Positions 3,697 through 45,309 of a DNA stretch of 64,000 nt are shown here, one piece after another. The translations under genes were made by a program, and so were the position numbers. Within the stretch, counting starts at the first letter, position 1. The number at the start of each line of letters is the position of its first letter. The notes beneath the pieces are model-generated. The model was not told where the DNA came from and ran no database searches. It worked only from the letters and a program-made list of their open reading frames with translations. The stretch comes from Somniosus microcephalus (lineage: Eukaryota): contig CM126215.1 in NCBI GenBank assembly GCA_052327205.1, forward strand, positions 20,584,001 through 20,648,000. Reading direction: 5' to 3'.

Positions 3697-5495
3697 AAAA
3701 TCAAGGAAAACCCAAAGGTGTTTTATAAAGAGCAAGAGGATTACTAAGGAAAGAGTAAGGCCTATTAGAGACCAAAAAGGTAACCAGTGTGTGGAGGCGG
3801 AAGATGTGGGTATGGTTCTTAATGAATACTTTGCTCATTGTGTCTGTCTTCACAGAAGAGAGGGACGATGCAGACATTGTAGTTAAGGAGGAGGAATGTG
3901 AAATATTAGATAAGATAAACATAGTGAGAGGGAACATTAAGGGGTTTAGCATCTTTGAAAGTAGATAAATCGCCAGGCCCGGATGAATTGTATCCCAGGC
4001 TGTTGAGCAAAGCAAGGGGCAAAATAGCGGAGACTCTGGCCATCATTTTCCAATCCTCTCTGGCTACAGGTGCGGTGCTGAAGGACTGGAGAACTGCTAA
4101 CATTGTACTGTTCAAAAAGGGCGAAAGGGATAGACCAAGTAATTATAGGCCAGTCAGCCTAACCTTGGTGGGCAAATTATTGGAAAAAATTCTGAGGGAC
4201 TGTAATCGTTATTTAGAAAGGCACAAATTAATCAAGGACAGTCAGCATGGATTTTTTAAGGGAAGGTCGTGTCTGACTAACTTGATTTTTTTTTGAGGAG
4301 GGTTGATGAGGGTAGTGCATTTGATGTAGTCTATATGGATTTTAGCAAGGCTTTTGACAAGGTCCCACATGGCAGACTGGTCAGAAAAGTAAAAGCCCAT
4401 GGGATCCAAGGGAAAGTGGCAAGTTGGATCCAAAATTGGCTCAGTGGCAGGAAGCAAAGGGTAATGGTCGATGGGTGTTTTTGTGACTGGAAAGCTGTTT
4501 CCAGTGGGGTTCCGCAGGTCTCGGTACTGGTCCCTTGCTTTTTGTGGAATATATCAATGATTTTAGACTTCAAAGTAGGGGGCATGATTAAGAAGTTTGC
4601 AGATGATACAAAAATTGGCCGTGTGGTTGATGGTGAGGAAGGTAGCTGTAGACTGCAGGAAGATATCAATGGACTGGTCAGGTGGGCAGAAAAGTGGCAA
4701 ATGGAATTCAATCTGGAGATGTGTGAGGTAATGCATTTGGGGAGGGCTAACAAGGCAAGGGAATACACAATAAATGGTAGAATACTGAAGTGTAGAGGAA
4801 CAGAGACACCTTGGAGTTCATGTCCACAGATCCCTGAAGGTAACAGGACAGGTAGATAAGGTGGTTAAGAAGGCATATGGGATACTTTCCTTTATTAGCT
4901 GAGGCACAGATAATAAGAGCAGGGAGTTTATGCTAAAACTGTATAAAACACTAGTAAGGCCACAGCTAGAGCACTGCGTACAGTTCTGGTCAGCACATTA
5001 CAGGAAAGATGTGATTGCATTAGAGAGGGTACAGAGGAGATTTATGAGGATGTTGCCAGGACTGGAGAATTCTAGCTGAGGAAAGATTCTATATGCTGGG
5101 GTTGTTTTCTTTGGAGCAGAGGAGACTGAGGGGACACTTGATTGAGGTATATAAAATTATGAGGGGCCTAGATAGAGTGGATAGGAAGGACCTATTTCCC
5201 TTAGCAGAGCGGTCAATAACCAGGGCCATAGTTTTAAAGTAATTGGTAGAAGGATTAGAGGGGAGTTGGAGAACATGGTGGGTGTCTGGAACTCACTGCC
5301 TGAAAAGGTGGTAGAGACAGAAACCCTCATCACATTTAAAAAGTACTTGACTATGCAGTTGAAGTGCCGTAACCTACAAGGCTACGGACCAAGAGCAGGA
5401 AAGTGGGATTAGGCCGGGTGGCTCTTTTTTGGCCGGCACAGACACGATGGGCCGAATGGCCTCCTTCTGTGCCGTAAATGTCTGATTCTATGATT
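3697..5495 (+). mobile_element. 5'-truncated CR1 LINE with frameshifted RT
   Basis: ORFs 3955..4296 and 4293..4859 carry KSPGPD, NYRPVSLT, QHGF, DFSKAFDKVPH, GVPQ and FADDTK; ends in a ttctatgat-type tail. Confidence 0.92.
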
Positions 5496-13769: not shown

Positions 13770-14005
13770 TGTGGTGTATGTAACCTGTTCCACCTTAAGA
13801 GAACTACTTTAAGAGATGTACTACTTTCTCTTGGCTGCTGTATACTGTAATACCGGTGGTGACCACACCGGTATATAAACGTTGTGTAGTGATTTGCTGG
13901 GCAGTTCAGCCCTGACCTCCGAATAGTAAAGACCTGTTAAAGTTATTCTTGTTGTCTGTGTCCAGTGATTTATAATAAGCATAACTGGGACACACACACT
14001 CAACA
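13770..14005 (+). repeat. 5' LTR of Gypsy A
   Basis: TGTGGTGTATG...CAACA; direct repeat of 23237-23472; TATA-like tatataa at ~13872. Confidence 0.95.
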
Positions 14006-14743
14006 GTGGCGACGAGTCCGATCTTACCCTGCGGCAGTTTTACATCCAAGGCAGCTTCGTCCTCAGAACGGGCGTCGAGAAGAGGCATCCGCCCTCATCA
14101 TCCTGCTGAGCACCACATCGCATGGGAGGCATCGAGAACCCGGGTTAAAAAGAAAAATTCTGAACACGAAGCCCTCCATCAGCGACAGGCAGTGATCATC
14201 CCTTCTACCACGGTGGTGGGTAAGCCGATCAGCGACACGAGCAGAAAGTCGGCCGCGTTGGCTGTGGAGTAGGGGAGGGAAAACGGAGGAAAAAGGGCGG
14301 AGAACTCGACCGCGGCCGGTGAAAAGGGCCGGGCTGCAATCGGGGCTGAGAGGCGCAGCGACTGGGGCAGCGTTAAGGCCACGAGAACCGTGGAGAACTC
14401 AACCGCAGCCGGTGTAAAGGACCGGCCTGCAAGCGGGGCTGAGAGGCGCAACAGCAGGGGAAGCGTGAATGCCCATGGGAACCGCGGGGGAGCAAAAAGC
14501 AGCGTCGGGGAATTGAGAACCGCTGGGGAGGCGAGAACGGCAGCAGCACGGCAATCGCCATTGCAGCCAGCGGGGGGGAAGAAGGCAAACGCGGGAAGCC
14601 ACCATTGTAGTCGGCGGGGGAAGAAGACGAGCGCGGGAAAAACCGCCAAGCGCGGGAAGCCGCCATTTTAGTAGGCGGGGGAAGAAGACAAGCGCGGGAG
14701 GCCGCCATTTTGGGAAAAAGAAAATTTAAAGAAACTTGCAAGG

Positions 14744-16291
14744 ATGCCTAAACATGATAACATCAATGCTTTTGATAGCGATGTCGAAGATTGGGCCACG
14801 TATGTAGAACGCATGGAAGTTTATTGTAAAGCAAATGAGGTACCAGATGATAAGAAAGCACTAACCTTATTAAACTCAATGGGTGCGAAGACGTACGGGC
14901 TATTGAAGCACCTTGTATCACCAGATAAACCGGCGGATCAGACTTTCGCGAATATTGTTACTGTCCTGAAAAATCATTTAAACCCCACGCCGCTGCTGAT
15001 AGCGGAACGATTTAAATTTTACAGAAGAACGCAGCTGAAAGAAGAAAGCAACGCTGAATTCTTAATTGAACTGCGTAAGCTATCAAAGTACTGTCAGTTT
15101 GGAACAGGACTAGCAGATGCGCTGAGAGATAAACTTGTGTGTGGATTGTTAAAAGAAGGAACACAAAAGCGACTGCTAGAGGAGAATCCTCTATTGCAGC
15201 ATCGCACGAAGCCGCAGCGAGAGGCACTGCGGAAATGCAGCTAAGGTCATCGGAACTCGGCACCAATCAAATGGCCTTGGGTGCAGTAAAGTGTTATCGT
15301 TGTGGAAAGACAACGCACGATCAGAACCAGTGCTGGTTCAAAAATCAGGAATGCAGAAAATGTGGCAGGCTTGGTCACATAGCTAAAGTATGCTGGTCAG
15401 GAAAGAAGACCAGCAACAAAAAGTCACCGCAGGAAAAGTGCAGAAAGGTACACAAGGTGACAGAGAACAGTTCGGATGAACAGAAGTCAGATTCAGACTC
15501 CAGCAGTAAGGAACTGGGTTGTCTAAGAGTACACAATGTGGGTAATGAAGCAGACCTCCAAACTATCTGGGTCACACTTCAGATAGCAGGAGTCCAAGTG
15601 AAGATGGAATTGGACACTGGATCGGCATGGACGGTCATGAATAAGCAAGATTACAAAAGGTTATTCCCACATATTCCCCTACGGGATACGGAGATTGTAT
15701 TGAAAACATACACGGGGCAAAGAGTATACCCCATCGGAAAGATAAAGGTAAAGGTGGTCCACAAGGGCAAAGAAAGCCGAGGAATGGACTTATATGTGCT
15801 ACCTGAGGGAGGTCCACCACTACTGGGACAGGAGTGGATCAGGAGAATAAATATGGACTGGCATTCCTTAAAAGCACTAACGGTAGATTCCGGTGAAAAA
15901 GATGTCAAACCTAAACGATTGTCCAGAATATTGGACGATGCTAAAGAGGTGTTCCAACAGGGACTGGGAACACTGAGAGGAATTACGGCAACCATCAAGG
16001 TTGAAGAACATGCAAACCTGAAATTTTTCAAAGCCAGACCGGTACCTTATGCGATACGACCTGCTGTGGAAGCTGAGCTGGAAGGGCTAGAACGTTCAGG
16101 AGTACTGTCAAAGGTGGACTGGAGTGAATGGGCCACGCTCATTGTTCCCGTCATGAAGCGTTCATCGAGCAACAAGCCGGGGGAACCGGGGAAGGTTCGC
16201 ATTTGTGGAGATTTCAAGATCACTGTTAATCCGGTGCTTCACACGGTGCAATATCCGCTTCCGCGGATTGAGGATATCTTCGCTTCATTGT
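14744..16291 (+). pseudogene. Gypsy A gag (two CCHC knuckles), aspartic protease and RT N-terminus; frameshifted
   Basis: ORFs 14744..15244 and 15139..16296 carry CYRCGKTTHDQNQC, CRKCGRLGHIAKVC, LDTGS, RICGDF and YPLPRIEDIFASL. A ~20-nt deletion near 15187 relative to element B shifts the frame. Confidence 0.92.
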
Positions 16292-17555
16292 TGTAGTGTA
16301 TGTAACCGTCCACCTTTAAGAGAACTATTTTAGGTGTTGCACTACTTTATCTTGGCTGCTGTATACTGTAATACCGGGAGTGACCACACTGGTATATAAG
16401 TGCTGTGTAAGGATTTATTGGGCAGATTCGCCCTGACCTTCGAATAGTAAAGTCCTGTTAAAGTTACTCTTGTAGTCTGTGCATTAATTCACCATATAAC
16501 CCACAGACTTTACAGTGGCGACGAGTTCGATCTTACCCTGCGGCAGCGATACATCCGAAGCAGTTAACGAGCGTCGAGAAGAGGCACCCGCCCTCGTCGT
16601 TCTGCTGAGAGAAGACTCGAGTCTGCAGAGCAAGGAAGAAGGAAGGATTCAGACACGAAGCCTTCCATCAGCAACAGGCTGTTATTGTCCCTTCTGCCAC
16701 GGCGGTGAGTGAGCCGATCAGCCACGAGAAGCAAGTCGGCCACGTTGACTGTGAGTAGGGGGAAAATAAAAAGAAACGGAGGATAAGGGCGGTGAACTCG
16801 ACCACGGTCGGGGGAAAGGAGCCGGACAGAAGTCGGGCCCAGAGGCGCTGAGACTGGGGCAGCGTAGGGCACGGAAGCCGCGGTACAAGCGGGAACGCAG
16901 CCGGTGTGAGAGACCGGGCTACAAGCGGGAATGCAGCCGGTGTGAGAGACCGGGCTACAAGCGGGCTGGGAGACGCCACAGCGTCGTGAGACAGCTAGAC
17001 CGCGACCGGCGAAAAAGGCCGGGCAGCTACCGAGGCCACGAGGCGCTGCGACCGGGATCGTAAGGCGCGGGAAGATATAAAAATAAATAAAACCGCGGAG
17101 AACTCGGCCGCAGCCGGGGGAGGAAAGGACCGGACTGCGAGAGGGCTGGGAGGTGCGATTGGAAGCCGCTGAGGGAGAGACGGGGCCCGAGTGAAGGGGG
17201 AACGGGACCGAGCGAGGGAGACCGAGCGAGATTCCGCCCAGCGGCTGGAACTGTTCGCCGCCAACGGGTTGTCCTCCGCGCCGGTTGCCGGCCGAGAAAA
17301 GGGAACAAGGAACGCACTGAAGCCGGCGCGCAGGCTGCGAACTCCGAAAGCCAGCGGTCGTCGCCCGAAGGAAAGCTTACCCCTCCCGCCAGGGGAAGAA
17401 ACGCGGGAAGCCGCCAGTAGGCGGGGAAGAAGACAGAAGCGGGAAACCGCCATTTTGAAAGTGGGCGGGGAAGAAGACAAGCGCGGGAAACCGCCATTTT
17501 TGGAAAAAAAAAGTAACGAACAAATTCGTTGTGGTTTCTCAAAAAGATAGTGAAG

Positions 17556-20027
17556 ATGCCTAAGCATGGTAACATCAACAACTTCGATTCCGAGGTGGAA
17601 GATTGGGCCATGTACGTAGAACGCATCGAGATATATTGTGAGGCCAATAAAATAGCAGATGATGATGATAAAGCTCTCACCTTATTAAACGCAATGGGGG
17701 CGAAGACATACGGGCTATTGAAGGATCTTCTATCACCAGCTAAACCGGCGGATCAGACTTTCGCTGATATTGTTGCTGCCCTGAAGGATCATTTGAACCC
17801 CACACTGCTGATGTTGGCGGAACGATTCAAATTTTATGCGAGAACGCAACGGAAAGAGGAAAGCAACGCGGAATACTTGGTCGAACTGCGTAGACTAGCG
17901 AAATACTGCCAGTTTGGGGAAAATCTGACAGAGGCATGGAGAGACAAGTTCGTGTGCGGGTTGTCGAAGGAAGGAACACAAAAGCGACTGCTCGAAGAGA
18001 ACGATCTTACACTTGGCAAGGCTGTCCTTATTGCAGCATCACACGAAGCAGCCGCGAGAGGCACTGCGGAAATGCAGCTGAAGGCAGCGGTACTCAGCGT
18101 GGATCAAATGACTTCGGGTACAACAAAATGTTATCGTTGTGGGAAGACAACACACGACCAGAACCAATGCTGGTTTAAAAACCAGGAATGTAGAAAATGT
18201 GGCAAGCTTGGTCACATAGCTAAAGTATGCCGGTCAGGAAAGAAGACCAACAACAGAAAAAAGTCACCGCAGGAAAAGTACAGCAAGGTACACAAGGTGG
18301 CTGAGAAGAGTTCAGATGAACAGAATTCGGATTCAGACCCGAACGGCCAGGAACTGGGTAGTCTGAGAATTCACAATGCGAGTAAGGAAGCTGACCTACA
18401 AACTATCTGGGTCACACTAAAAGTAGCCGGAGTCCAAGTGAAAATGGAATTGGACACAGGATCAGCCCTATCAGTCATAAATCGAAGGGATTACAACCGG
18501 CTATTCTCACATATACCCTTGAGAGATACCAAGATCGTATTGCAGACATACACGGGGCATAAAGTATACCCCATGGGAAAGATACAAGTCAAGGTGAGAG
18601 ACAGGGGCAAAGAACACCAAGGAATGGACTTATATGTACTACCTGAGGGAGGTCCACCACTTCTGGGACGGGAGTGGATCAGGGAGATAAACATGGAATG
18701 GCACTACCTAAAAGCAATAACGAGTGAGAACTCGGTGAAGACAATCAGCTCACACTCTGGAACGGATGATGACAAGACCAGCCCAAGTGCGAAAGACAAG
18801 TCTAAAATGGACTTGCTGACTAAGGTTGGAAAAACGAAGGAGTGCATAAATACTAATGCTTCAAAGGAGAACAAAGTTTCAGAACAGAATTCCACTGAAC
18901 AACAACAACATAGTTTGGCAGAGAATTCTGAGTCTGTCCAGTTTACAGACATGCACAAGTCTGAGGAACACCGGGCTCGAACTCGACTCCATTTCAAATT
19001 ACAACAGCAATTAGAACAATTGAGTTGCCGTCTCGAGCAAGAGATAAAAGCAATGAAAACGTTCTTTGACACAGAGTGGGAGAATCTGGAAAGACAACAG
19101 GAACAGCTGAGGGAGAAAAGGGAGCAGGAGTACACAAACCGTCTGCGCAAGGAGGTCAAACGAATCAAAGCTGATTCGGTTTCTGAAGGTGCGGGCTCTA
19201 ATCTGGTGGAGCAAGATGTTCAGCAACTGAAGGCGCTTGTTAGCAGATTGCAGGCAGAAAAGGCTGAGTTGGTCGCCATGAATTCCGAGCTCCTACTGAA
19301 GTTGGGTGCAGCATCACCGGACGATTCATTTGTGGAAATTCGAATGGTGGAGGCTGCGGATGATGGCGAAGTAGAAACAGCAAAGGAGCCCCAGGGCAAG
19401 GTTATAAACAGCCCTGCAGCTACTGGGAAACGGATGAGGTCAGAAGAGTCAATGGTCAGCCAACTCCTTCATATGCTGAGGGACAAGACTCTGAAATGGA
19501 AACAATTTGGACATGAGTCTAAATCTTCAAAGGAGAGGGGTTGGGAGCTCCCAAAAGTTATTGGAATAGCTGAGGTTGCAACACAGACTGAGAAGATGGC
19601 AGCAGAGCAAACCTTGGATGCCAAAAGTACGCTGATTCACGTCAATGTTGAACAACAGAATGCTGAAACAGCTGCTCCAGTAGAGGGATTGAATAATACA
19701 ATCAATCAATCTCCCAATGAAGTTGAAGTATTGAAATCACGAATGAGGTCAGTAGTAAAAGACTTGCAGGAAGCCCAGAAAAAGCTGGATGAAACTGAAC
19801 GCATGAAGAAGTCTCTTCAGGAAAGATGTCTGGATTTGGAACAAAAGCTGGCTAACGTCCAGCTGGGTATGGAGGAAATAGAAGACCCTCTCGCTGGCCT
19901 AGCTCAGGACGACACCGAATATTACCATGACCTGTTGGACGACACCGAATATTACGATGACCTGCTCTGCCCAGCTTGTGATAAACTCCCAAAGTGCAGA
20001 AACCATGAAGAATCACCTAAAGTCTAA
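17556..20027 (+). CDS. Chimeric ORF (~823 aa): Gag (2x CCHC), aspartic protease, unassigned linker, STK10/SLK coiled coil, optineurin segment with LIR, DNAJC21 zinc-finger start
   Basis: Uninterrupted ORF from ATG 17556 (MPKHGNINN, homologous to A's MPKHDNINA). LDTGS at 18450-18464. Homology to A ends ~18722, after which come FFDTEWENLERQQ, RLQAEKAEL...DSFVEIRM and YDDLLCPACDK. Confidence 0.9.
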   Translation: MPKHGNINNFDSEVEDWAMYVERIEIYCEANKIADDDDKALTLLNAMGAKTYGLLKDLLSPAKPADQTFADIVAALKDHLNPTLLMLAERFKFYARTQRKEESNAEYLVELRRLAKYCQFGENLTEAWRDKFVCGLSKEGTQKRLLEENDLTLGKAVLIAASHEAAARGTAEMQLKAAVLSVDQMTSGTTKCYRCGKTTHDQNQCWFKNQECRKCGKLGHIAKVCRSGKKTNNRKKSPQEKYSKVHKVAEKSSDEQNSDSDPNGQELGSLRIHNASKEADLQTIWVTLKVAGVQVKMELDTGSALSVINRRDYNRLFSHIPLRDTKIVLQTYTGHKVYPMGKIQVKVRDRGKEHQGMDLYVLPEGGPPLLGREWIREINMEWHYLKAITSENSVKTISSHSGTDDDKTSPSAKDKSKMDLLTKVGKTKECINTNASKENKVSEQNSTEQQQHSLAENSESVQFTDMHKSEEHRARTRLHFKLQQQLEQLSCRLEQEIKAMKTFFDTEWENLERQQEQLREKREQEYTNRLRKEVKRIKADSVSEGAGSNLVEQDVQQLKALVSRLQAEKAELVAMNSELLLKLGAASPDDSFVEIRMVEAADDGEVETAKEPQGKVINSPAATGKRMRSEESMVSQLLHMLRDKTLKWKQFGHESKSSKERGWELPKVIGIAEVATQTEKMAAEQTLDAKSTLIHVNVEQQNAETAAPVEGLNNTINQSPNEVEVLKSRMRSVVKDLQEAQKKLDETERMKKSLQERCLDLEQKLANVQLGMEEIEDPLAGLAQDDTEYYHDLLDDTEYYDDLLCPACDKLPKCRNHEESPKV

Positions 20028-20373
20028 GGAACATCGGGAGATGGTGGCGCTACTACGGAAAAAGGAGGACGAGAAGGAGGAACGGCGCATGCAGCTGGCA
20101 GCTGACCGTGGAGCCCAGAGAGTCTCCAAGAAGCAGAAAAGGAAAAGACGAAGCAGAAGATGATGACCATCTGAACCATTATCACCTCTACCAGGTCACG
20201 CACGTGGTCTCTCCGTATGGAGCCAAATCAGTTTGGAAGTAGAAAAACTTCCCAAGGTACTCAAGCTTTTAAAAGTCAACAATGCTGGTTCAGAAGTGAC
20301 GGAAGTTCAAGCTGTTAAGTCCAGTGAAGGACTATTGGATGAGTCACTCCAGCAACATGAACCGACTACACCA

Positions 20374-20483
20374 AGACTGAATCTGTGAACTGTTTTCCGC
20401 AGAGACTGAATCTGTGAACTGTTTCCCGCAGAGACTGAATCTGTGAACTGTTTCCGCAGAGACTACATCTGTGAACTGTTTTT
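20374..20483 (+). repeat. ~29-bp tandem repeat (about 3.8 copies) of the pol stop-codon region
   Basis: Unit agactgaatctgtgaactgttttccgcag starts at 20374, 20403, 20432 and 20460; element A has a single copy at ~23146. Confidence 0.9.
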
Positions 20484-20772
20484 ACATGAAGTTGGATATA
20501 TGTTATGTTTAATGGGGAATAAGTATGTTGTAAGCTAAAAAGGGAGGATTGTAGTGTATGTAACCGTCCACCTTTAAGAGAACTGTTTTAGGTGTTGCAC
20601 TACTTTATCTTGGCTGCTGTATACTGTAATACCGGGAGTGACCACACCGGTATATAAGTGCTGTGTAAGGATTTATTGGGCAGATTCGCCCTGACCTTCG
20701 AATAGTAAAGTCCTGTTAAAGTTACTCTTGTAGTCTGTGCATTAATTCACCATATAACCCACAGACTTTACA

Positions 20773-23160
20773 GTTGTCTGGCGGGAAACACTTCACCAAG
20801 ATAGACCTGGCGCAGGCGTACTTACAGATGGAAGTTGAGGAAGAGTCACGCCAGTATCTCACGATTAACACGCATAGAGGCTTGTATCGGTATAATACTG
20901 GTTTTTGGAGTGGCATCGGCTCCAGCAATTTGGCAGAGGGCCATGGAGCAGGTATTACAGGGAATTCCAGGCACACAATGTTACCTGGACGATATTCTGA
21001 TTACAGGAGATGATGATGAGGAACATCTTGCAAATTTGGAACTGGTGCTCACCAGATTGAAAGAATATGGACTTCGAGTTAACCGCCAGAAATGTGAGTT
21101 CTTTCAGAAGCGGATCTCGTACTGTGGTCAAGTCATTGACCAGGAGGGGCTTCATAAGTCTCCTGACAAGATCGAAGCTGTTGTGAAGGCTCCCGCTCCG
21201 GATAATGTATCCCAGTTGAGGTCGTTCCTAGGGTTGATTAACTATTACCATAAGTTTCTGCCAAATTTATCCACGGTGCTGCACCCGCTGAACGCTCTTT
21301 TGCAGAAGGGAGTACCATGGAAGTGGAGCGAGGACTGTAAGAGGGCCTTTCGCAAAAGCAAGGCATTGATCACCTCCGAGGAAGTGTTGGCTCACTTCAA
21401 CCCAACGCTGCCTATTCGTTTGGCTTGTGATGCTTCTCCATATGGTATTGGGGCAGTACTCTCACACAAGTTGCCAAATGGCCTGGAGAGGCCAGTCGCA
21501 TTCGCATCCAGATCATTGACCTCCGCTGAGCGCAACTATGCTCAGATAGATAGGGAGGCTCTCAGCCTTGTGTGGGGAGTAAAGAAGTTTAATCATTACC
21601 TGCAGGGCCAAAAGTTTACGCTACTGATAGACCACCAGCCGTCGGTATCCATTTTTAACCCTAAGAAGGGTGTTTCGGTGATGACAGCACAGAGGCTCCA
21701 GAGATGGTCCCTTTTCCTAGGGGCACATCAATATCAGATCAAATTCAAAGGTACAAAGCAGCATGGTAATGCTGATGGGCTGTCGCGCCTGCCACTACCT
21801 ACAGAGGAGGAGGCACCGACGGTTGACCCTGTTGAGTTATTTCACTCGACCATCATCGAATGTTTACCAGTCACCAATGCAAGTATTGAAAGAGAAACCA
21901 GGAACGACCCGACACTGTCCCGGGTCTACGAATTGACAGCGAAGGGATGGCCAGCACATGGTGATCCACTGTTACCGGCATTCTCAGCAAGACGAGAACA
22001 GCTGTCCGTCTGTCAAGGAACATTGATGTATGGAACAAGGGTGATTATTCCTCCTAAGTTAAGAGAGAGAGTTCTAAAGGAACTGCATGAAGGTCATCTG
22101 GGGGGAGTCAAGATGAAAAGCCTTGCTAGGGCTTATGTGTGGTGGCCGGGCATCGACCAACAGATAGAGGATCTGACGAAAAGCTGCTCAGGGTGCCAAA
22201 AAGTTCAAAATGCACCTCCGATTGCACCGCTGCATCCATGGGAATGGCGTTCAACCCCATGGCAACGTGTACATATTGACTTTGCTGGTCCATTCATGGA
22301 CTCCATGTTTTTAATTGCGGTGGACGCACATTCTAAATGGCCAGAAGTGATTAAGATGACTACCACTACCTCGGAAAAGACGATCGCGGTGCTAAGAACG
22401 ATATTCGCAAGAAATGGATTGCCAGAACAAATATGTTCAGACAACGGACCGCAGTTCGTGTCAGAAGAATTCCAGAAATTCATGAAGAATGGGGTGAAAC
22501 ATTATACCTCTGCCCCATATCATCCGGCTACAAACGGGTTGGCCGAGAGATTTGTACAAACGTGCAAAAAAGCAATAAAGGCCATGAGCGAAGATCAGAT
22601 TCCACTACAACACAAGGTGGACAATTTCCTACTGGCATATCGAAACGCCACTCATGCAGTGACAAACCAAAGTCCTGCCATGATGTTCTATAACAGGAGG
22701 TTGCGGTCCAGGTTGGACTTGTTAAAACCAAATGTGCGGAGGGAAGTCGAAAACAAACAGTTCCAGCATATAAATAACAAGACCACTCGGAGTTTCGAAA
22801 TAGGACAACCAGTGTTAGCCCGGGACTATAAAAATGAGAAATGGCAATCTGGAACAATTCGGGCCAGACAAGGACCCCTGATGTACAGGGTAGATATTGG
22901 TGAAAATGTAATACGACGTCATGCTGACCAACTGGTAGAATCAAGAACAAGGGCCGAACCCATGGTTACGGCAGAGACAACCGTGGAAGAAGTTAGTGAA
23001 CCTGAAGCATCTACCTCAGAAGTGAATGTACCTGATGATGATGATGTCCAATCCATAAGAGATCAACTAGATGAGTCACCCCAGCAACGAGAATCAGAGA
23101 CCCCCTGAAAGGCGTTATCCAACTCGGATCAGGAGGCCTCCTCAGAGACTGAATCTTTGA
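20773..23160 (+). pseudogene. Gypsy A pol remainder: RT, RNase H, integrase
   Basis: ORFs 20774..21013 and 20835..23108 carry IDLAQAYLQ, YLDD, CDASPYGIGAVL, HHCC (HEGH...CSGC) and DDE (HIDF, SDNGPQF, NGLAER). Frameshifts near 20896 and 23103; native end RLNL* at ~23160. Confidence 0.93.
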
Positions 23161-23236
23161 ACTGTTTTGCATGAAGTTGTATATATATATGTTATGTTAA
23201 ATGGGGATATACACTGTTAAGCTAAAAAGGGAGGAT

Positions 23237-23472
23237 TGTGGTGTATGTAACCTGTTCCACCTTAGGAGAACTACCTTAAGAGATGTACTACTTTCTCTTG
23301 GCTGCTGTATACTGTAATACCGGTGGTGACCACACCGGTATATAAACGTTGTGTAGTGATTTGCTGGGCAGTTCAGCCCTAACCTCTGAATAGTAAAGAC
23401 ATGTTAAAGTTATTCTTGTTGTCTGTGTCCAGTGATTTATAATAAGCATAACTGGGACACACAGACTCAACA
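23237..23472 (+). repeat. 3' LTR of Gypsy A
   Basis: Follows the PPT; direct repeat of 13770-14005. Confidence 0.95.
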
Positions 23473-27148: not shown

Positions 27149-29050
27149 CATAGAAACATAGAAGATAGGAGTAGGCCATTCGGCCCCTCGAGCCTGCTCT
27201 GCCATTCAATGTGATCATGGCTGATCATCCAAATTCAGTACCCGGTCCCTGCTTTCTCCCCATACCCCTTGATCCCTTTAGCCTTGAGAAATATATCCAA
27301 CTCCTTCTTGAATATATTTAATGAATTGGCCTCTACTGCCTTCTGTGGTGGAGAATTCCACAGGTTCACCACTCTCTGGGTGAAGAAATTCCTCCTCATT
27401 TCTGTCCTAAATGGCTTACCCCTTATCCTTAGACTGTGACCCCTGGTTCAGGACTCCCCGACCATCGGGAACATTCTTCCTGCATCTAGTCTGTCCAGTC
27501 CTGTCAGAATTTTATAAGTTTCAATGAGATCCCCTCTCATTCTTCTAAACTCCAGTGAGTACAAGCCCAATCGACCCAATCTCTCCTCATACGTCATTCC
27601 TGCCATCCCAGGTATCAGCCTGGTGAATCTTCGCTGAACTCCTTCCATGGCAAGAACGTCCTTCCTCAGATAAGGTGACCAAAACTGCACACAATACTCA
27701 AGATGTGGTCTCACCAAGGCCCTGTACAACTGCAGCAAGACATCCTTGTTCCTGTACTCCAACCCTCTCACTACGAAGGCCAACATACCATTTGCCTTCT
27801 TAACCGCCTGCTGCACCTGCATGCTTACCTTCAGCGACTGGTGCACAAGGACATCCAGGTCTCGTTGCACTTCCCCTTCTCCCAATCTATTGCCATTTAG
27901 ATAATCTGCCTTCCTGTTTTTGCTACCAAAGTGGATAACCTCACATTTATCCACGTTATATTGCATCTGCCATGCTTCTGCCCAATCACCCAACCTGTCC
28001 AAATCATCCTGGAGTTTCTCGGCATCCTCCTCCCAGCACACACGCCCACCCAGCTTTGTGTCGTCTGCAAATTTGGAGATATTATATCTAGTTTCCTTGT
28101 CTAGATCATTAATATATATTGTGAATAGTGGTGGTCCAAGGACCGATCCCTGCGGTACCCCACTAGTCACTGCCTGCCACTTGGAAAAAGACCCGTTTAT
28201 TCCAACTCTTTGCTTTCTGTCTGCCAACCAGTTCTCTATCCAAGTCAGTACCTTGCCCCCAATCCCATGTGCCTTAACTTTACACGCTAATTTCTTATGC
28301 GGGACCTTATCGAAAGCCTTCTGAAAGTCCAAATACACCACATCCACTGGTTCTCCCTTATCTATTTTACCAGTTACATCCTCAAAAAATTCCAGTAGAT
28401 TAGTCAAGCACGATTTACCCTTTGTAAATCCATGTTGACTTTGCCCGATCCTGTCACTGTTTTCCAAGTGCTCCGCTATTACATCTTTTATGATGGACTC
28501 TAGCATTTTCCCCACTACCGATGTCAGGCTTACCGGTCTGTAATTCCCCGTTTTCTCTCTACCACCTTTTTTGAATAGTGGGGTAACATTAGCTACCTTC
28601 CAATCCATGGGTACTGTTCCAGATTCCATCGAATGTTGGAAGATGATCAGCAATGCATCTACTATTTCTAGGGCCACTTCCTTAAGTACCCTAGCATGTA
28701 GATTATCAGGCCCTGGGGATTTATCGGCCTTCAATCCCGTCAACTTCCCCAACACCATTTCCCTACAAATACTGATTTCTTTCAGTTCCTCCCCCTCATT
28801 AGTCCCTATGTTCCCCGACATCTCTGGGAGGTTATTTGTGTCCTCCTTTGTGAAGACAGAACCAAAATATGTATTTAATTGGTCTGCCATTTCTTTGTTC
28901 CCCCATTATAAATTCCCCTGATTCTGACTGCAAGGGACCTACGCTTGACTTCACCAATCTTTTTCTCTTCACATATCTATAAAAGCTTTTACAATCAGTT
29001 TTTATGTTCCCTGCAAGCTTACACTCATATTCTATTTTCCCCTTCTTAAT
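27149..29050 (-). mobile_element. Young 5'-truncated CR1 LINE
   Basis: 480-aa minus ORF plus 3' UTR and catagaaacatagaa tail. Confidence 0.95.
27448..28890 (-). pseudogene. CR1 ORF2 reverse transcriptase domain (5'-truncated)
   Basis: NYRPVSLTS, QHGF, DFQKAFDKVPH, GVPQGSVLGP, FADDTKL, RPHLEYCVQFWSP. Confidence 0.93.
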
Positions 29051-29511: not shown

Positions 29512-30945
29512 AACCACTTATCAGCCCAAGCCTGAATGTCATCCAGGTCTTGCTGCATTTGGGCATGGACTGCTTCATTATTTGTGGAGTTGTGAATGGA
29601 ACTGAACACTGTGCAATCATCAGCGAACAGCCCCATTTCCACCTTTTATGTTGGAGGGAAGGTCATTGATGAAGAAGCAGCTGAAAATGGTTGGGCCTAG
29701 GACACTGCCCTGAGGAACTCCTGCAGTGATGTCCTGCGGCTGAGATGATTGACCTCCAACAACCAGAGCCATCTGCCTTTTGTGCTAGGTATGACTCCAG
29801 CCAGTGGAGTGGTTTCCCCCCCCCCCCCCCAATTCCCATTGACTTCAGTTTTACTAGGGCTCCTTGATGCCACAATCGGTCAAATGCTTCCTTGATGTCC
29901 AGGGTGATGACTCTCGCCTCACCCCTGGAATTCAGCTCTTTTGTCCATGTTTGGACCAAGGCTGTAATGAGGTTTGGAGCTGAGTGGTCCTGGCGGAACC
30001 CAAACTGGGCATCAGTGAGCAGGTTATTGGTGAGTAAGTGCTGCTTGATAGCACTGTCGATGACACCTTGTATCACTTTGCTGCTGATTGAGAGTAGACT
30101 GATGAGGCAGTAATTGGCTGGATTGGATTTATTCTGCTTTTTGTGGACAGGATATACTTGGGCAATTTTCCACATTGTCGGATAGATGCCAGTGTTGTCG
30201 CTGTACTGGAACAGCTTGGCTAGAGGCACGGCTAGTTCTGAGCACAAGTCTTCATCGTGACAACCGGGATGTTGTCTGGGCCCACAGCCTCTGCTGTATC
30301 CAGTGCGCTCAGCTGTTTCTTGATAACCTGTGGTGTGAATCGAATTGGCTGAAGACTGGCTTCTGTGATGGTGGGGCCCTCGGGTTGAGGCCGATATGGA
30401 TCATCCACTTGGCACGTCTGGCTGAAGATGGTTGCAAACACTTCAGCCTTGTCTTTTGCACTCGCGTGCTGCGCTTCGCCATCATTAAGGATGGGGATAT
30501 TCATGGAGCCTCCTCTTCCCGTTAATTGTTTAATTGTCCACCATCATTTACGACTGGATGTGACAGGACTGCAGCGCTTTGATCTGATCCGTTGGTTGTG
30601 GGATCGCTTAGCTCTGTCTATAGCATGTTACTTCCGCTGTTTAGCATGCATGTCATCCTCTGTTGCAGCTTCACCAGGTTGGCACCTCATTTTTAGGTAT
30701 GCCTGGTGCTGCTCCTGGCATGCTGTTCTACACTCACTCAACCAAGACAGGGTTGGTCTCCTGGCTTGATAGTAATGGTAGTGAGGGGTATGCCGGGCCA
30801 GGAGGTTACAGATTGTGGTGGAATACAATTTTGCTGCTGCTGATGGCCCACAGCGCCTCCTGGATGCCCAATTTGGAGCTGCTAGATCTGTTCTGAATCG
30901 ATCCCATTAGTACCACACAACATGATGGAGGGTGTCCTCAGTGAC
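29512..30945 (-). mobile_element. Second CR1/L2-group LINE family, RT region fragment
   Basis: ORFs 29663..30247 (QFGFRQDHS, LDIKEAFDRLWH) and 30232..30504; frameshifted. Confidence 0.88.
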
Positions 30946-35078: not shown

Positions 35079-36184
35079 AATCATTTATGGGATCTGGGCA
35101 TCACTGGCAAGGCCAGCATTTATTGCCCATCCCTAGTTGCCCTTGAGAAGCTGGTGGTGAGCTGCCTTCTTGAACCACTGCAGTCCGTGTGGTGATGGTA
35201 CTCCCACAGTGCTGTTAGGTAGGGAGTTCCAGGATTTTGACCCAGCGACGATGAAGGATTGGCGATATACTTCTAAGTCAGATGGCGTGTGACTTGGAGG
35301 GGAACTTGGAGGTGGTGGTGATCCCCTGCGCCTGCTGCCCTTGTCCTTCTAGGTGGAAGAGGTCGCGGGTTTGGGGGGAGGTGCTGCCGAAGAAGCCTTG
35401 GCGAGTTGCTGCAGTGCATCTTGTAGATGGTACACACTGCAGCCACGGTACGCCGGTGGTGGAGGGAGTGAATGTCTAAGGTGGTGGATGGGGTGCCAAT
35501 CAAGCGGGCTGCTTTGTCCTGGATGGTGTCGAGCTTCTTGTGTTGTTGGAGCTGCACTCATCCAGGTAAGTGGAGAGTATTCCATCACACTCCTTACTTG
35601 TGCCTTGTAGATGGTGGAAAGGCTTTGGGGAGTCAGGAGGTGAGACACTCGCCGCAGAATACCTAGCCTCTGACCTGCTCTTGTTGCCACAGTATTTATG
35701 TAGCTGGTCCAGTTAAGTTTCTGGTCAATGGTGATCCCCCAGGATGTTGATGGTGGGGGATTCGGTGATGGTAATGCCGTTGAATGTCAAGGGGAGGTGG
35801 TTAGACTCTCGCTTGTTGGAGATAGTCATTGCCTGGCACTTCTGTGGCGTGAATGTTACCTGCCACTTATCAGCCCAAGCCTGAACGTCGTCTAGATCTT
35901 GTTGCATATGGGCATGGACTGCTTCATTATCTGAGGAGTTGTGAATGGCGCTGAACACTGTGCAGTCATCAGCGAACATCCCCATTTCTGACCTTATGTT
36001 GGAGGGAAAGTCATTGATGAAGCAGCTGAAGATGGTTGGGCCTAGGACAGTGCCCTGAGGAACTCCTGCAGCGATGTCCTGGGGCTGTGATGATTGACCT
36101 TCAACCACCACAACCATCTTCCTTTGTGCTAGGTATGACTCCAGCCAGTGGAGCATTTTCCCCCCGATTCCCATTGACTTCAGT
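35079..36184 (-). mobile_element. Second CR1/L2-group LINE, 5'-truncated, inserted into a + strand CR1 fragment
   Basis: ORFs 35725..36174 (GVPQGTVLGP, FADDCT), 35349..35690 and 35273..35557; the CR1 sequence at ~35040-35066 resumes at ~36185. Confidence 0.88.
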
Positions 36185-38335: not shown

Positions 38336-39045
38336 GGCCTAGAAATTCAGTGGGCCTTGCGCCCACTTAGCGCCTAAAGAGGTCTTTTGCGCTGGCGGGG
38401 TGGTAGCGCGGAAATTGAGTGCAGCGGTATTGGCGGCGGTAGCAGTTAGCGCTGCGCCGGGACCGATGACGTCATCGGTGCGCGCGGTGGCCCATAACGC
38501 CCCGAAACCGCGCCGATCCCCATATTTATTTGCGCCCGCCTCCTCCGAAGCGGGCGCAAACAGCGAACAGAAAACGGGGCCGTCCTGCTGCCATAGTGGG
38601 GCGCTTTAAAGCTGAAGGTGCGGCCGGCCGCTTTTTCGGCGGCCGCCTGCCCACACCTCCTTCCCCGGCCTCCTCCACCCCCCCCCCCCCCCCGCGGCAT
38701 TGCCAGCTGGTTTCCGTGGAGCCCGGCACTTCTCCGTTGTGCCGGGCTCTTTTGCCGGCACTCGCGATCGGGGCTCCGGCCGTTGCAGGCACCTCCCCCT
38801 TAAGAGAAGGAGGAGGCCTGCAGTACCGCAGCCTGCCGCACCGCATCGGGTGGCGCTGCGGCAACTAGTGCGCCGATATTCAGTTGCAGCGCCCCAAACG
38901 GAGGCGGGCACACCCTGGTATAGCGCCCGCTTCCGAATTGGGGCGCAGAAGACGAATATACGGCATGCGCTAATGCCTCCCCGCCCAGCGCTAACTTTTG
39001 GGCGCGCGCGAGCGAGCTGCCCGCGCCCAAGTGAATTTGTAGGCC
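38336..39045. mobile_element. GC-rich PIF/Harbinger-like MITE
   Basis: TIRs GGCCTAGAAATTCA / TGAATTTGTAGGCC (1 mismatch); ATA duplication at 38333-38335 and 39046-39048. Confidence 0.72.
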
Positions 39046-39348
39046 ATAGTGTTAGATCCGTGATTCTTAAAATAGGATGTTTTCCAATAACTACACGGAT
39101 GCTGTAATTTAACAATCAACAGGTGTTTACTGGAGTAGGGTAGTCTCAAGACTGGGAGTACAGAGGCATGCTCAAGGCTTATATATAAGTGTGGTCACTG
39201 CCGGTACTACAGTATACAGGAGCTGTAAAAGTAGTTCTCTCTTAAAAGGTACATACACTACAATTCCCCCCCTTTTAGATTAGCAGTACCCATAATATGC
39301 AAATAACAATTAACACTTTAACATGCACATTAAACAGAAATAGTCCAT

Positions 39349-40536
39349 TTATAGATTCAGTCTTTGGGGCGGCTTCCTGATCCTTTCTGGATAGCGCCTT
39401 TCCTGAGGTTCTTGTTCTTGGTGCGGAGGCGATTCTGGCCCCCTTTCATCGGTTTCCACTGCTACTGTTTCTGAGGTAGATGCTACCGATATGTCGGGTT
39501 CATCCCCAGGTACGCGACACATGGGGTTGACTCGTTCCTGTGACGCTAAGATCTGGTCGACGTGGCGTCTCACAATGTTCTCCCCGACATCCACTGTGTA
39601 CATTAATGGCCCCTGCCGTGTGCATATCGTTTCGGGTTGCCATTTCTCTGTTTGGTAGTCACGGGCCAAGACTGGTTGTCCTACATTGAAGCTCCTTGTC
39701 GGCTTCTCATTGATGTGCTGGAATTGTTTATCCTCAACATTTCTTCGCACATTTGGTCTGAGCAAATCCAGACGAGATCTCAACCTTCGGTTAAAGAACA
39801 TCATGGCCAGGGTCTGGTTGGTAACTGCATGTGTCGCATTTCTGTAGGCTAACAGGAAATTGTCCACCTTATGCTGTAGTGGAATTTCATCATCGCACAT
39901 GGCCTTTATCGCCTTTTTTAAAGGTTTGTACGAACCTCTCAGCCAATCCATTTGTGGCTGGATGATACGGGGCGGATGTGTAATGCCTTACCCCATTCCT
40001 TCTCATAAATTTCCGAAACTCTTCGGACACAAACTGTGGTCCATTATCAGAGCAAATCTGCTCTGGCAAGCCGTTCCTGGCAAATATGGTCCGTAGGACT
40101 GCAATCGTTTTCTCTGTAGTGGTTGAGGACATTTTTATCACCTCAGGCCATTTCGAGTGCGCATCCACTGCTATTAAGAACATTGAGTCCATGAATGGAC
40201 CAGCAAAATCAATATGCACCCGTTGCCATGGAGAGGAGGGCCAATCCCATGGGTGTAGAGGGGCATGTGGTGGTGCATTTTGGACTTTCTGGCATCCTGA
40301 GCAGCTCTTGGTTAGGTCCTCGATTTGTTGATCAATCCCCGGCCACCACACAAGCCCTAGCAAGGCTTTTAATTTTCACCCCTCCCAGATGACCTTCGTG
40401 AAGCTCATTTAGCACTCTCTCCCTTAACTTCAGTGGAATTACCACTCGGGATCCACACATCACTGTCCCCTGGCATACTGACAGCTGTTCTCTTCTGGAT
40501 GAGAATGCTGGCAACAGTGAGTCGCCATGTGTTGGC
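39349..40536 (-). pseudogene. Gypsy C integrase, frameshifted
   Basis: ORFs 40332..40658 (ELHEGHLGG), 39890..40363 (HIDFAGP, SDNGPQF) and 39349..39951 (ends RKPPQRLNL). Confidence 0.92.
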
Positions 40537-43500
40537 TGTAATGATATCAGCAAATAAAGATGGTATTTGCCTGTTCGATTATGATGCCTTACCAGCATGA
40601 TTGCATGTATTGATTGCTTGTGCCTGACCAGCAGAGGGTATGTGACCGAGACAAGCAAGGCAGTTGAGTTTAGTTTCAGTTTCGTTCTAGCTGCATCACG
40701 AGCAGGATGTCTCCTGTAAATGCTGTATAAAGAGTTGAACAGACTTTAGATTAAAAGACATTCTCTTTCATAAATGTCTCGTCATTGAACCCACAAAGAA
40801 ATCAATACATGGTGTCAGAAGTGATTGAAAGAGATGAAGAGGAAAAATCTGAAGTTAAATCAGCTCTCCACAGATTAGCAAGCCAAAAGAGAACATCGTT
40901 ACTTACCATTAGAGAATAGCTAACGAAGTGAAAAATGGAAGGTTTACTCCCACCGGCGACGCTTCAGTTGACAGGTAATGTGGCTGAAAATTGGAGGAGA
41001 TTCAAACAACGTGTAGAGTTGTATTTAGCGGCAATCGGAGCTGACGAGAAAAGTGATGATAAGAAATCGTCAGTGTTCTTCCATGTTGTGGGTGATGAAG
41101 CGCTGGAGGTGTATAATAATTTCACATTCGCTGCTGATGGAGACAAAATGAAGCTAGATAAAATAATGGAACAGTTTGAGGCCTACTGCATACCTTAACG
41201 TGACGTTTGAGAGGCACAGATTTTTCACGTGTACAGAAAACGGGTGAGACTATTGATCAGTATGTGACTGAACTGAGAAACCGAAGCAAATCGTGTGAAT
41301 TTGGGGGACTGACAGACTCGCTGATAAAAGACAGACTGGTGTGTGGTATTCCAGATAATGGTCTAAGGGAAAGACTGCTAAGAAAGCAAAATCTAGACCT
41401 GGGAAAAGCCATAGCACTGTGTAGGGCTACAGAGACTGTGAAGTTGCAGGCAAAGGAGCTGTTCAGTGACAATAGCTGCAACGTGGATGCAGTGAGAAAG
41501 AACGGACACAAACAGTTTAACAAAAAGCGCCAATGTGAAAAAAGAGGCATGGCCAGCGAACGAAAATGAAAGGGGCAATCGAAAGTCATGTAGTCAATGC
41601 GGTACACAGCATCCACCAAGAAAGTGCCCAGCATATGGTAAAACATGCAATAGTTGCAACAAGAACAACCATTATGCCCGTTGCTGTAAGAACCAAGCGC
41701 AACAAAGCAAGGTCCATACAGTAGATGAAAGCGAGATAGAGGAGTTCAATGTAGATGTTGTGTCTGAAAACAAAAAAGAAGAAAGTGACTGGATGTTGAC
41801 ACTAAAAGTGAATGACATACACATTCCATTTAAATTGGATACTGGAGCACAAGTTAATGTGATATCAGAGACTGATTTTAAGAAAATTAGACCCAGACCA
41901 AAGATACATGGAATAAAAGTGAAAGTGACAGGATACTCAGGTACTGATATACCAGTGAAAGGAAGATGCATTGTCAAAGTAACACACAAGGACAGAGAGC
42001 ACACGCTAGCATTAATCGTGGTACCAAAGGATGTGCAAGCCATACTAGGTTTAAAAGCCTGTGAGACACTGAACCTGGTAAAGAGAGTCCTCGTTGTGGA
42101 AAGCGAAGGAGAGACAGTCTATGATGAACTCATGAAAGAGTACAACGACCTATTTAAGGGTCTAGGCTGCATTCTAGGAGAACACACGATCAGAGTAGAT
42201 AAAAGTATGACACCGGTCATACATCCATGCAGAAAAGTCCCGTTTGCTCTTCAAAAGCAACTGCAGGCAGAGTTGGACAGGATGGAAAGCCTGAACGTGA
42301 TTCGGAAGATAGATGAGCCAACTGAGTGGGTGAGTTCCCTCGTCGTAGTGGACAAAAAGAATGGAAAGCTCGGAATTTGCCTGGATCCAAGAAATCTAAA
42401 CAGAGCAACAAAGAGAGAGCACTTCAAGCTTCCTACACGTGAGGAAATCATGGCACAGTTTGCAAATGCAAAGTATTTCAGCAAGTTAGATGCATCATCA
42501 GGATTTTGGCAGATGAAATTGGACGAAGCAAGTTCAAGACTGCACGTTCAACAGTCCATTTGGCAGATACAGATTCCTAAGGTTACCATTTGGCATTGCC
42601 TCAGCTCCTGAAGTGTATCACAAAACTATCCATATGATCTATGAGCACCTGGAGGGAGTTGATACATCAATGGATGACATCATAGTATGGGGAACCACGA
42701 GAACTGAGCATGACGAGAGACTGAAAAAAGTGCTGGAAGCAACAAGGAAAACAAACCTGAAGCTGAATAGAGAGAAATGCCAGCTCGGGGTGACAGAACT
42801 GACATTCGTGGGAGATATCCTTAGCAGTGAGGGCATCAGACCAGATCCCAGAAAGGTGTCCGCCATTGAGAATATGCCAAAGCCACAATGCAAAAAGGAC
42901 GTGCAGAGGTTTAATGGAATGATCAACTACATGGGTAAATTCATATCCAACCTCTCAGAAAAGATGGCGCCACTGAGACGACTAACTGAAAAGAACATAG
43001 AATGGGAATGGAATCATGAGCATGAGAAGTCATGGAGCGATCTAAAGAAACTGCTCACAGAGGAACCAGTTCTGAGGTTTTATGACCCAGCGAGACCCAT
43101 CAAGATATCATCAGATGCATCACAGAGTGGGCTCGGTGCCGTTCTTCTGCAACAATATGACTGACTACTGGCAACCTATTGCATATGCATCGCACTCAAT
43201 GACAGACGCGGAGACGCGATATGCTCAAATAGAAAAGGAGCTGCTCAGCATCACATACGCCTGTGAAAGATTTCACCAGTTTGTGGCAGGACAAGCAATC
43301 AGTGTAGAGACTGACCATAAGCCCTTGATTGCATTGTTCCAAAAGCCACTAAATAGCTGTCCGCTTAGAATACAAAGAATGATGATCAGGCTGCAACGCT
43401 ATACACTGAATGTTGCGTACACACCGGGTAAACTGATGTATACAGCAGACACGTTGTCCAGAGCTGTTGACCCAAGTGAGCCCGCAAACACCAAGATGGA

Positions 43501-45309
43501 TGAAAAAGTGAACGCCTACGTGGACATGATCACAAGTGCACTGCCCATAGCAGATGCAAAAATGGAGCTCATAAAGACTGAGACAAACAAAGATGAAACA
43601 ATGAGACGACTGAGGAAAAGCATCTTGGATGGATGGCCCAACATGAAGCAAGACTGCTCACCTGACATGGCAGAGTACTGGAACTGCAGGGTGGAACTAT
43701 CAGTGGTCGAAGACATCACCTACAAAGGAAGTAAAATACTTATCCCAAAGAGTCTGAGAAAAGAGATGTTAAAAAAGATCCATGGAGGACATCTGGGAAT
43801 CAAAGTGTAAGAAAAGAGCACGAGAGGTGATGTACTGGCCACGAATCAACCAAGATGTGACAAATGAGGTGTCAAACTGCACAATATGCCTGAAATATCG
43901 AGCAAGCAATCCGGTAGAACCACTAAAGCCACACCCAGCGCCAGACAGACCTTACCAGAAGGTAGGCGCTGACCTATTCGTATGTCAAGGGAAGGACTAT
44001 CTTGTAGTCACAGACTATTACTCCCTGTATCCAGAGGTTTGTAGACTGTACACCACCACTGCAGATGCTGTGATAACATGTATGAAAGCCATATTCTCCA
44101 GACATGGCGTGGCAAGCGAGGTCTTCACAGACAACGGACCCCAGTTTTACAATGCAAGTTTCCAACACTTTGCCAAAGAGTGGGACTTTGTCCACACAAC
44201 GTCAAGTCCTCACTTTCCACAGTCCAATGGACTAGTGGAAAAATCGGTCCAGACAGTGAAAAGACTGATGTACAAGGCAAAAGACAGTGGAACTGACTTC
44301 TACCAGAGCATGCTTGTATACCGCACAACGCCGCCCGAGTGTGGTATGTCACCAGCCCAACTCCTTATGGGACGTCGGCTAAGGTCAAACCTACCCATCC
44401 CGGAGAACCACCTGAAAACAAAAGAGGGGGAGAAAGTGAGGAAGTTCAAAGAACAACAGAAAGAAAAGCAAAAGTACTACTATGATAGAGGAACACAAAA
44501 CCTACCTGAACGCCACACTGGTGACCAAGTAAGGTTCAAAGACAAAACAAACATATGGACTCAGAAGGGAACTGTCCTGAGTGAAGTTCAACCAAGATCA
44601 TACACCATTCAGACAGATGAGGGTGCTGTTCTGAGAAGAAATCGTCGAGATCTTCTCATGGGACCAGCCACAGCAGGTCAAGAGACTGATACTGTTGAAC
44701 AACCTGATCACACAGCTGAGAAACCATCATCTGAGGCAACAACTCAGATTCAAGGACAATCAATCAGAAAATCCTCAAGACGCGTGAAGCCTCCTGAGAG
44801 ACTCATTGAGCAAATTTAAGGACTATTGTTATAGAAGGAAGTAATGTTATCTTATTCTTTCTTCAAGTTCTAGTGTATTGACATATTTCATGTGAACACA
44901 CAAAGCAGAGTTAAAAAACCTTGATCATGATAATGATAATGCAAGTTCATTAAGTGTTACAGTTAAAATGCAGATTAATACAAAGAAAACATGTTGTTAG
45001 TTAAAAGTAAAATACTTTTGTTTTAAGAAAGGGAGATGTAATGATATCAGCAAATAGAGATGGTATTTGCCTGTTCGATTATGATGCCTTAATAACATGT
45101 TTGCATGTATTGATTGCTTGTGCCTGACCAGCAGAGGGCATGTGACCGAGACAAGCAAGGCAGTTGAGTTTAGTTTCAGTTTCGTTCTAGATGCATCACT
45201 AGCAGGATGTCTCCTGTAAATGCTGTATAAAGAGTTGAACAGACTTTAGATTAAAAGACATTCTCTTTCATAAATGTCTCGTCATTGAACCCACAAAGAA
45301 ATCAATACA
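40537..45309 (+). mobile_element. Ty3/Gypsy LTR retrotransposon 'D' (different family), nested in C
   Basis: 273-bp LTRs at 40537-40809 and 45037-45309 (~8 differences); exact TSD TTGGC; PBS TGGTGTCAGAAGTG (tRNA-Leu(CAA)-like); PPT AAGAAAGGGAGA. Confidence 0.96.
40935..44819 (+). pseudogene. Gypsy D gag-pol with multiple frameshifts
   Basis: ORFs 40935..41198, 41207..41569, 41535..42611 (LDTGA, LDASSGFWQ), 42613..43164 (SMDD, SDAS), 43082..43810 and 43782..44819 (TDNGPQF, NGLVEK). Confidence 0.92.

Follow-up and report, generated by a model that had tools for sequence, protein, structure and literature searches.

The window analyzed here is a 64,000-nucleotide stretch of contig CM126215.1 (positions 20,584,001 to 20,648,000, forward strand) in the 6.45-Gb assembly GCA_052327205.1 of the shark Somniosus microcephalus. 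It contains a non-autonomous Ty3/Gypsy-type long terminal repeat (LTR) retrotransposon in which gag and the aspartyl protease (PR) are followed by a cargo of pieces from three host genes, STK10, OPTN (optineurin), and DNAJC21. The open reading frame (ORF) of this copy (17556-20027, 823 aa) had Pfam matches to zf-CCHC, aspartyl protease, and PKK domains, and reverse transcriptase (RT), RNase H (RH), and the integrase (IN) core were all absent. Two intermediates, designated F1 and F2, survive as families alongside the window family (F3), and the template of the first capture was very probably a circular RNA (circRNA) of STK10.

The three host genes proposed in a preliminary description of this DNA were all recovered, and the kinase, which had been given as STK10 or SLK, was settled as STK10. 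The cargo matched STK10 with a best E value of 4e-39 and optineurin with a best E value of 1.5e-78, and the nearest named proteins were from sharks in both cases. The DNAJC21 piece had phmmer E values of 3e-7 to 3e-4 and was 53% identical over 57 aa to shark DNAJC21; a homologue search with this piece found none among 58 candidates, and its identity rests on the other comparisons. As had been proposed, the cargo is intronless. The parent genes carry introns at positions where the cargo has none, across the six exons of OPTN, across the STK10 exons, and at one intron position in DNAJC21. An exon of the DNAJC21 type with a splice acceptor at the predicted position was found once in the genome. 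The zinc finger exon match of DNAJC21 (C1:4792892-4792926) is out of order with respect to the N-terminal exons (C1:2653208-2667876), being 2.1 Mb away on the wrong side of them, which could reflect mis-scaffolding or a second copy. A PF21884 match on contig C17 was set aside, as the N-terminal DNAJC21 exons were found on C1. In the assembled parent OPTN gene, also on C17, two extra bases in or beside A-runs (L046, ~780-795 and 1360-1372) break the frame relative to orthologues. Element copies keep the orthologous frame at the places where the assembled parent breaks it, and either an assembly error or a real allele may be responsible.

The order of STK10 in the window element is permuted, such that the cargo starts at aa 400 and the upstream exons follow the stop codon. 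STK10 supplies two 5' pieces, the second of which comes after an in-frame deletion relative to F1, and an upstream-derived piece (19869-19886 and 20146-20343; ~aa 313-388) that ends at the site where the cargo of F1 began. When the genome was searched with the STK10 region that is absent from the window, 98 matches were obtained (150 of 209 candidates scored), and 75 of these were near-full matches of the F1 type, with introns absent and at least 127 of the 135 residues covered. All 10 of the 10 F1 loci fetched had the same order, with Gag-PR and the start of pol followed by STK10 aa 385-704, STK10 aa 290-388, and an integrase tail. The join of aa 704 to aa 290 was at an identical position in all 10, and the frame was open from Gag to a stop in the integrase tail in 6.

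In the parent STK10 gene on contig C8, a GT donor follows the first side of this join, and an AG acceptor precedes the second side, 6.5 kb upstream. The donor-side and acceptor-side patterns had one match each in the genome and none in the control. The donor and the acceptor are thus both single: the join is a back-splice junction at the exact splice sites, and the assembly shows no tandem duplication. The F1 cargo was 99-100% identical to the three parent STK10 exons read; for the circle, these three exons were compared with the parent, and the two downstream exons were represented by an F1 copy for piece 2. The two ends of the F1 cargo fall on a shared 14 nt of the long exon (parent 393-406), 1,245 nt or 415 codons apart, and this 14-nt site resembles both the pol start and the integrase tail of the neighboring older Gypsy (Table 1). 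The F1 cargo is confined to the exons of the circle and joins the integrase tail directly, with no poly(A). Unit length and a terminal direct repeat are what copying once round a circle gives. The back-splice junction is seen in F1, whereas in the window copy it has been overwritten by OPTN and only the permuted order is kept.

The OPTN piece enters and leaves within exons, at microhomologies of 9 and 8 nt with STK10, and replaces the back-splice region. The F2 arrangement, in which OPTN runs straight into STK10 without DNAJC21, had 47 genome matches. The single F2 locus read keeps its frame across the OPTN-STK10 join, has 94-97% identity to the parent, and is then broken and truncated. RNA reads skipped exactly the 259-nt DNAJC21 insert, with a shorter side of up to 42 nt in one run, and these reads together with the F2 copies place the DNAJC21 capture last. 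Identity to the parents fell stepwise, from 99-100% in F1 to 94-97% in F2 and 91-95% in F3. Microhomologies of 4-14 nt were present at the five switch points that were read, namely the two element-STK10 boundaries, the STK10-OPTN switch (9 nt), the OPTN-STK10 switch (8 nt), and the deletion (4 nt). Secondary retroposition with shared switch points was seen across copies of the family. The absence of introns, the microhomology, and the survival of F1 and F2 as families bear out the earlier proposal that spliced host RNAs were captured serially, in sense orientation, by template switching and then amplified. The proposal had named spliced mRNAs as the templates, but the first was in all likelihood a back-spliced circle. 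It had also been thought that all junctions were in frame, but the frame is lost at the DNAJC21-to-STK10 junction, where the ORF closes with a basic tail.

Synonymous divergence (dS) between F3 and F1 was 0.28-0.30 in gag-pro and 0.14-0.17 in the shared STK10 pieces, a gap which suggests that the gag-pro and LTR of F3 came from another lineage by recombination. Further sub-variants were apparent, with RNA reads that skip 56 or 39 nt within the DNAJC21 piece (20053-20110) and variable repeats in the 5' untranslated region (UTR). The DNAJC21 piece also contains a tandem duplication of a 27-nt acidic repeat (19900-19960), and tandem repeats of ~30 nt and of integrase-tail origin are located at 20365-20480.

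Table 1. Features of the window element and of the older element into which it is inserted (positions in the window).
Feature	Position	Strand	Description or basis
Whole element	16292-20772	+	Ty3/Gypsy-type LTR retrotransposon, non-autonomous
5' LTR, 223 bp	16292..16514	+	2/223 differences from 3' LTR; TG...CA ends
Primer-binding site (PBS-like)	16516..16525	+	directly after 5' LTR, from sequence
gag with two CCHC knuckles and aspartyl protease	17556..18721	+	Pfam
STK10 piece 1, ~aa 400-478, 3' part of long exon	18722..18966	+	90.6% to parent exon on C8
STK10 piece 2, ~aa 614-686, PKK coiled coil	18963..19174	+	87.7% to precursor copies; PF12474
OPTN piece, ~aa 131-384, six exons joined without introns	19166..19879	+	exon-by-exon match to parent on C17
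Remnant of the STK10 exon next after the back-splice acceptor	19869..19886	+	18/18 identical to that parent exon
DNAJC21 piece, 259 nt inserted in STK10 exon	19887..20145	+	acidic stretch, C2H2 finger, basic tail
STK10 piece 3, ~aa 322-388, upstream exons, now 3' untranslated	20146..20343	+	91-95% to parent exons
Integrase-tail remnant, short tandem repeats, 3' UTR	20335..20536	+	alignment to precursor and host element
Polypurine tract	20537..20549	+	sequence
3' LTR	20550..20772	+	2/223 differences from 5' LTR
Older related Gypsy, gag-PR-RT-RH-IN, broken	13770..23472	+	domain order; LTRs differ at 6/236

The near-identity of the LTRs was confirmed (Table 1), as were the PBS-like stretch after the 5' LTR, which we take to match the 3' end of tRNA-Ser, and the purine tract before the 3' LTR. 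The target-site duplication is 5 bp, with agreement at 4 of the 5 positions. There was no env-like Pfam match in the ORF and the relatives are Gypsy-type, and the element was not assigned to a retroviral lineage. The ORF of ~823 aa, the CCHC knuckles, and the protease are present as described, but this length is private to the window copy, and the frame of the family is 868 codons. A frameshift near 19,980, private to the window copy, is absent from most RNA reads (74/79 and 28/31), and the 868-codon frame was open in 18 of 29 other copies fetched, a sample biased toward the window element because it comprises its best matches. For an 868-aa copy, single-sequence AlphaFold gave no useful structure (mean pLDDT, 44.7; values of 70-83 only in long helices at ~480-570 and ~720-770).

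The window element is inserted in the RT of the older Gypsy. The gag-pro of this older Gypsy is 87.6% identical to that of F1 and 79% identical to that of the window family, and the older Gypsy is therefore nearer the donor of F1. Its domains are in the order PR-RT-RH-IN. Further nested Gypsy-type elements, with gag, RT, RNase H, and integrase ORFs on both strands, occupy 39000-48900 of the window. ORFs resembling fragments of non-LTR reverse transcriptases, presumably of the CR1/L2 type, are located at 4281-4859, 27448-28905, 29663-30400, and 35725-36183. ARAGORN found no tRNA in the window.

The element is no isolated locus; it belongs to a family of thousands dispersed over many contigs. 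A 29-nt pattern over the STK10-OPTN junction had 3,991 matches with ≤2 mismatches and none in the control. This is a count of junctions rather than of full-length copies, and subtraction of F2 gives roughly 3,900 copies of F3. Among 3,831 candidate genome matches to 18700-20350, 40 of 40 scored spanned the region at 98-100% identity, and all 40 LTR-plus-PBS matches scored were also 98-100% identical. The 3' flanks were distinct in 26 of 26 readable F3 copies. Some junction matches lie 4.3-4.4 kb apart on one strand (C1:10173481/10177876; C19:73917133/73921400) and are probably tandem elements that share an LTR.

Divergence in gag-pro among copies was 0.84% in F3 and 1.44% in F1 (10 copies each), whereas the F3 lineage has changed by ~9% from the parent genes. 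This difference suggests that the lineage went through many rounds of reverse transcription. The description of the element as young holds in sequence terms only; at a substitution rate of 7e-10 per generation, the value given in the available part of PMC10587355, a divergence of 0.45% corresponds to millions of generations.

Two RNA runs, assigned by species label, covered 30 of 30 bins (5,956 and 4,313 reads). In run one, the first mates were mainly on the minus strand in every bin, which would indicate sense RNA if stranding was of the usual kind, and run two was strand-mixed. These reads show transcripts that contain element sequence. Contigs under two other organism labels (runs X1 and X4) also covered 30 of 30 bins, and the family may be shared by related species.

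Gag-protease is under purifying selection. Between F3 and F1, the dN/dS of gag-pro was 0.20-0.23, and its codons had 53 synonymous and 48 replacement changes versus a ratio of ~27:72 under neutrality. In contrast, copies that have already inserted decay neutrally (gag-pro piN/piS of 0.98 among 18 open copies), which places the selection on the lineage as it replicated rather than on loci in the host. For the cargo, comparison with the parents over 381 codons, with DNAJC21 excluded and an F1 copy as the parent for one piece, gave 26 synonymous and 62 nonsynonymous changes, a ratio indistinguishable from neutrality (P of 0.09-0.53 over transition and CpG settings). Raw NG86 dN/dS values of 0.46-0.73 for the cargo were rejected as a sign of constraint after simulation with transition bias. 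The 3' STK10 piece was coding in F1 and F2 and is an unclean neutral control. There were no stops among 98 substitutions in the cargo (3.3-4.3 expected; P of 0.009-0.03), and cargo indels were multiples of three except for two 1-nt gaps where the assembled parent leaves the orthologous frame. The commonest change between the parent and copy L010 was T>G (21/98), followed by G>A (20), a spectrum that is odd for neutral drift.

The first OPTN exon, which from human OPTN we take to encode the Rab8-binding zipper and an LC3-interacting motif (LIR-like), departed from the rest of the cargo. Over its 60 codons in 18 copies there were 6 synonymous and 2 replacement changes versus 22:58 elsewhere (Fisher P of 0.012), with ~10 replacements expected and a scan-corrected P of 0.024-0.056. 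Its sequence corresponds to optineurin peptides in PDB entries 9ikq and 9m0o. The earlier suggestion of selection for a Gag-PR-cargo protein is upheld only in part, in that the frame stays open beyond chance and Gag-PR is constrained, but apart from the first OPTN exon the cargo residues are near neutral.

These results suggest the following history. In the first step, which produced F1, pol was replaced by one turn of an STK10 circular RNA (aa 290-704, 1,245 nt). RT would have entered the circle at the site that resembles pol and integrase, passed the back-splice junction on its way round, and exited where it had entered, generating the 14-nt direct repeat. Destruction of the template by RNase H behind RT may have forced this exit after a single turn. 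An identical product may have arisen if the circle integrated at a single site in a pol-deleted element. In the second step (F2), a piece of OPTN mRNA replaced the back-splice region via the 9- and 8-nt microhomologies, and the lineage further gained two in-frame deletions and probably a new gag-pro. In the third step (F3), a piece of DNAJC21 mRNA was inserted in the STK10 remnant, ending the ORF. The capture history, including the circle, is highly probable.

The element would make its own Gag and protease, co-package its RNA, and borrow the RT and integrase of an autonomous relative. Gag-PR and an open frame through the cargo would be kept by selection acting as the lineage replicates, with most cargo residues being filler. 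It is possible, though we hold it tentatively and at rather less than an even chance, that the OPTN zipper-LIR exon has been retained as a module, serving either to tether the Gag polyprotein to ATG8/Rab8 membranes or to blunt OPTN autophagy; a function of the cargo other than as filler or as this OPTN module is improbable. If true, acquisition of the OPTN module would help explain the rise from ~100 to ~4,000 copies. Taken as a whole, the account is likely to be the best explanation.

Several points weigh against this account. The circular STK10 template is deduced from genomic DNA, and for piece 2 an F1 copy took the place of the parent exons in the comparison. Mobilization in trans, as proposed in the preliminary description, and with it dependence on a helper, follows from the absence of RT and integrase. 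No matching helper turned up: a probe for an F3-type protease end with a different continuation had one match in the genome, which was another truncated cargo copy. The RNA reads may be read-through of intronic copies, and the fused Gag-PR-cargo protein is predicted from the open frame and the transcripts. The synonymous fraction over the cargo as a whole is not above neutral, and the signal of the first OPTN exon was singled out post hoc and becomes marginal once corrected for scanning.

The cargo may instead be inert filler, with the frame kept only because an early stop followed by a long 3' UTR would lead to degradation or poor packaging of the transcript, and with the OPTN signal due to chance. 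We give this close to an even chance. The near-neutral ratio of synonymous to nonsynonymous changes in the absence of stops is what filler predicts, the cargo has been swapped and deleted repeatedly, and the permutation scan gave a P of 0.056. Furthermore, 14 of 17 young Drosophila LTR retrocopies are in frame with their parents in the available part of PMC5131818. However, synonymous changes in the first OPTN exon are at a normal level, with 2 replacements versus ~10 expected (uncorrected P of 0.0003-0.003), and F3 tolerates ~0.5 kb of 3' UTR after the stop. Co-option of copies by the host, for example as sources of small RNA or as dominant-negative regulators of OPTN or STK10, would fit the existence of transcripts and of sequence 91-95% identical to host genes; it is very unlikely considering the neutral decay of copies after insertion and that no single conserved locus was seen.

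A linear template for the permuted STK10, whether an mRNA with repeated exons, a trans-spliced mRNA, or a tandem duplication of these exons in the genome, would give an identical donor-to-acceptor junction, and PMC4897178 cautions that non-colinear junctions can arise in other ways. It is nevertheless unlikely, because the assembly has one donor and one acceptor, and the cargo has exactly one unit length and a terminal direct repeat, and no part of it comes from beyond those exons. An assembly chimera, which had been named as a finding that would undo the preliminary description, is ruled out by the dispersed copies with distinct flanks; taken together with a DNA-level segmental duplication, it is scarcely conceivable, given thousands of copies on many contigs, their presence in runs from 4 studies, and the absence of introns. 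More broadly, the family may represent a vertebrate retrotransposon that samples circular and linear host RNAs as in-frame Gag extensions and has kept the OPTN zipper and LIR, a module of an autophagy receptor, as an accessory domain, a suggestion that we consider less likely than not.

The route by which circRNAs enter genomic DNA was left open in PMC4897178. A full unit-length circle in an intact LTR element, with readable switch points, points to template switching in the particle and makes the mechanism testable. The three stages of serial capture are preserved as separate families; fossil series of this kind, recording how an LTR element shuffles exons, are rare. If mostly full length, ~4,000 copies of ~4.5 kb amount to ~18 Mb, with fragments of STK10, OPTN, and DNAJC21 genome-wide that will mislead annotation, estimates of expression, and the calling of circRNAs in the shark. 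If the OPTN exon is truly selected, a transposon took over a module of a host autophagy adaptor.

Acutely transforming retroviruses carry gag-onc fusions, with host coding sequence joined to gag in frame, are replication defective, and depend on helpers. The window family differs from these in its germline amplification as a Gypsy element, in showing no env, and in a cargo that is mostly unconstrained. Searches of the literature, which did not extend to repeat databases or most subscription journals, listed no shark element of this kind, in agreement with the novelty claimed for sharks in the preliminary description, and no unit-length circle fused to gag in an LTR element. The components are known individually, but those searches turned up neither their combination nor a case on this scale or with preserved intermediates. 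Maize Bs1 is similarly an LTR element with a hybrid ORF from three unlinked host genes, but it is from a plant and has 1-5 copies, and the available passages mention no circRNA origin (PMC5131818, PMC13317346). According to the available part of PMC5131818, LTR retrocopies in animals have microsimilarity at switch points, multi-gene chimeras, and secondary retroposition. As in the window family, partial sense mRNAs replace internal ORFs between LTRs; the window family differs from the retrocopies in that part of the source in its ~4,000 copies, three surviving stages, Gag-PR fusion, and preservation of the frame at the level of the lineage. The terms "circRNA" and "circular RNA" have 0 occurrences in the available text of Tan et al. 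2016 (PMC5131818). A resemblance to the first capture is seen in circRNA-derived pseudogenes such as mouse circRFWD2 beside MMERVK10C, which also have a back-splice junction in DNA, an association with an LTR, and dozens of copies, and whose mechanism is called "mysterious" (PMC4897178). In contrast to these, the shark circle is enclosed by a complete LTR element in which the two switch points can be seen, spans exactly one turn in frame with Gag, and was later overwritten by further captures.

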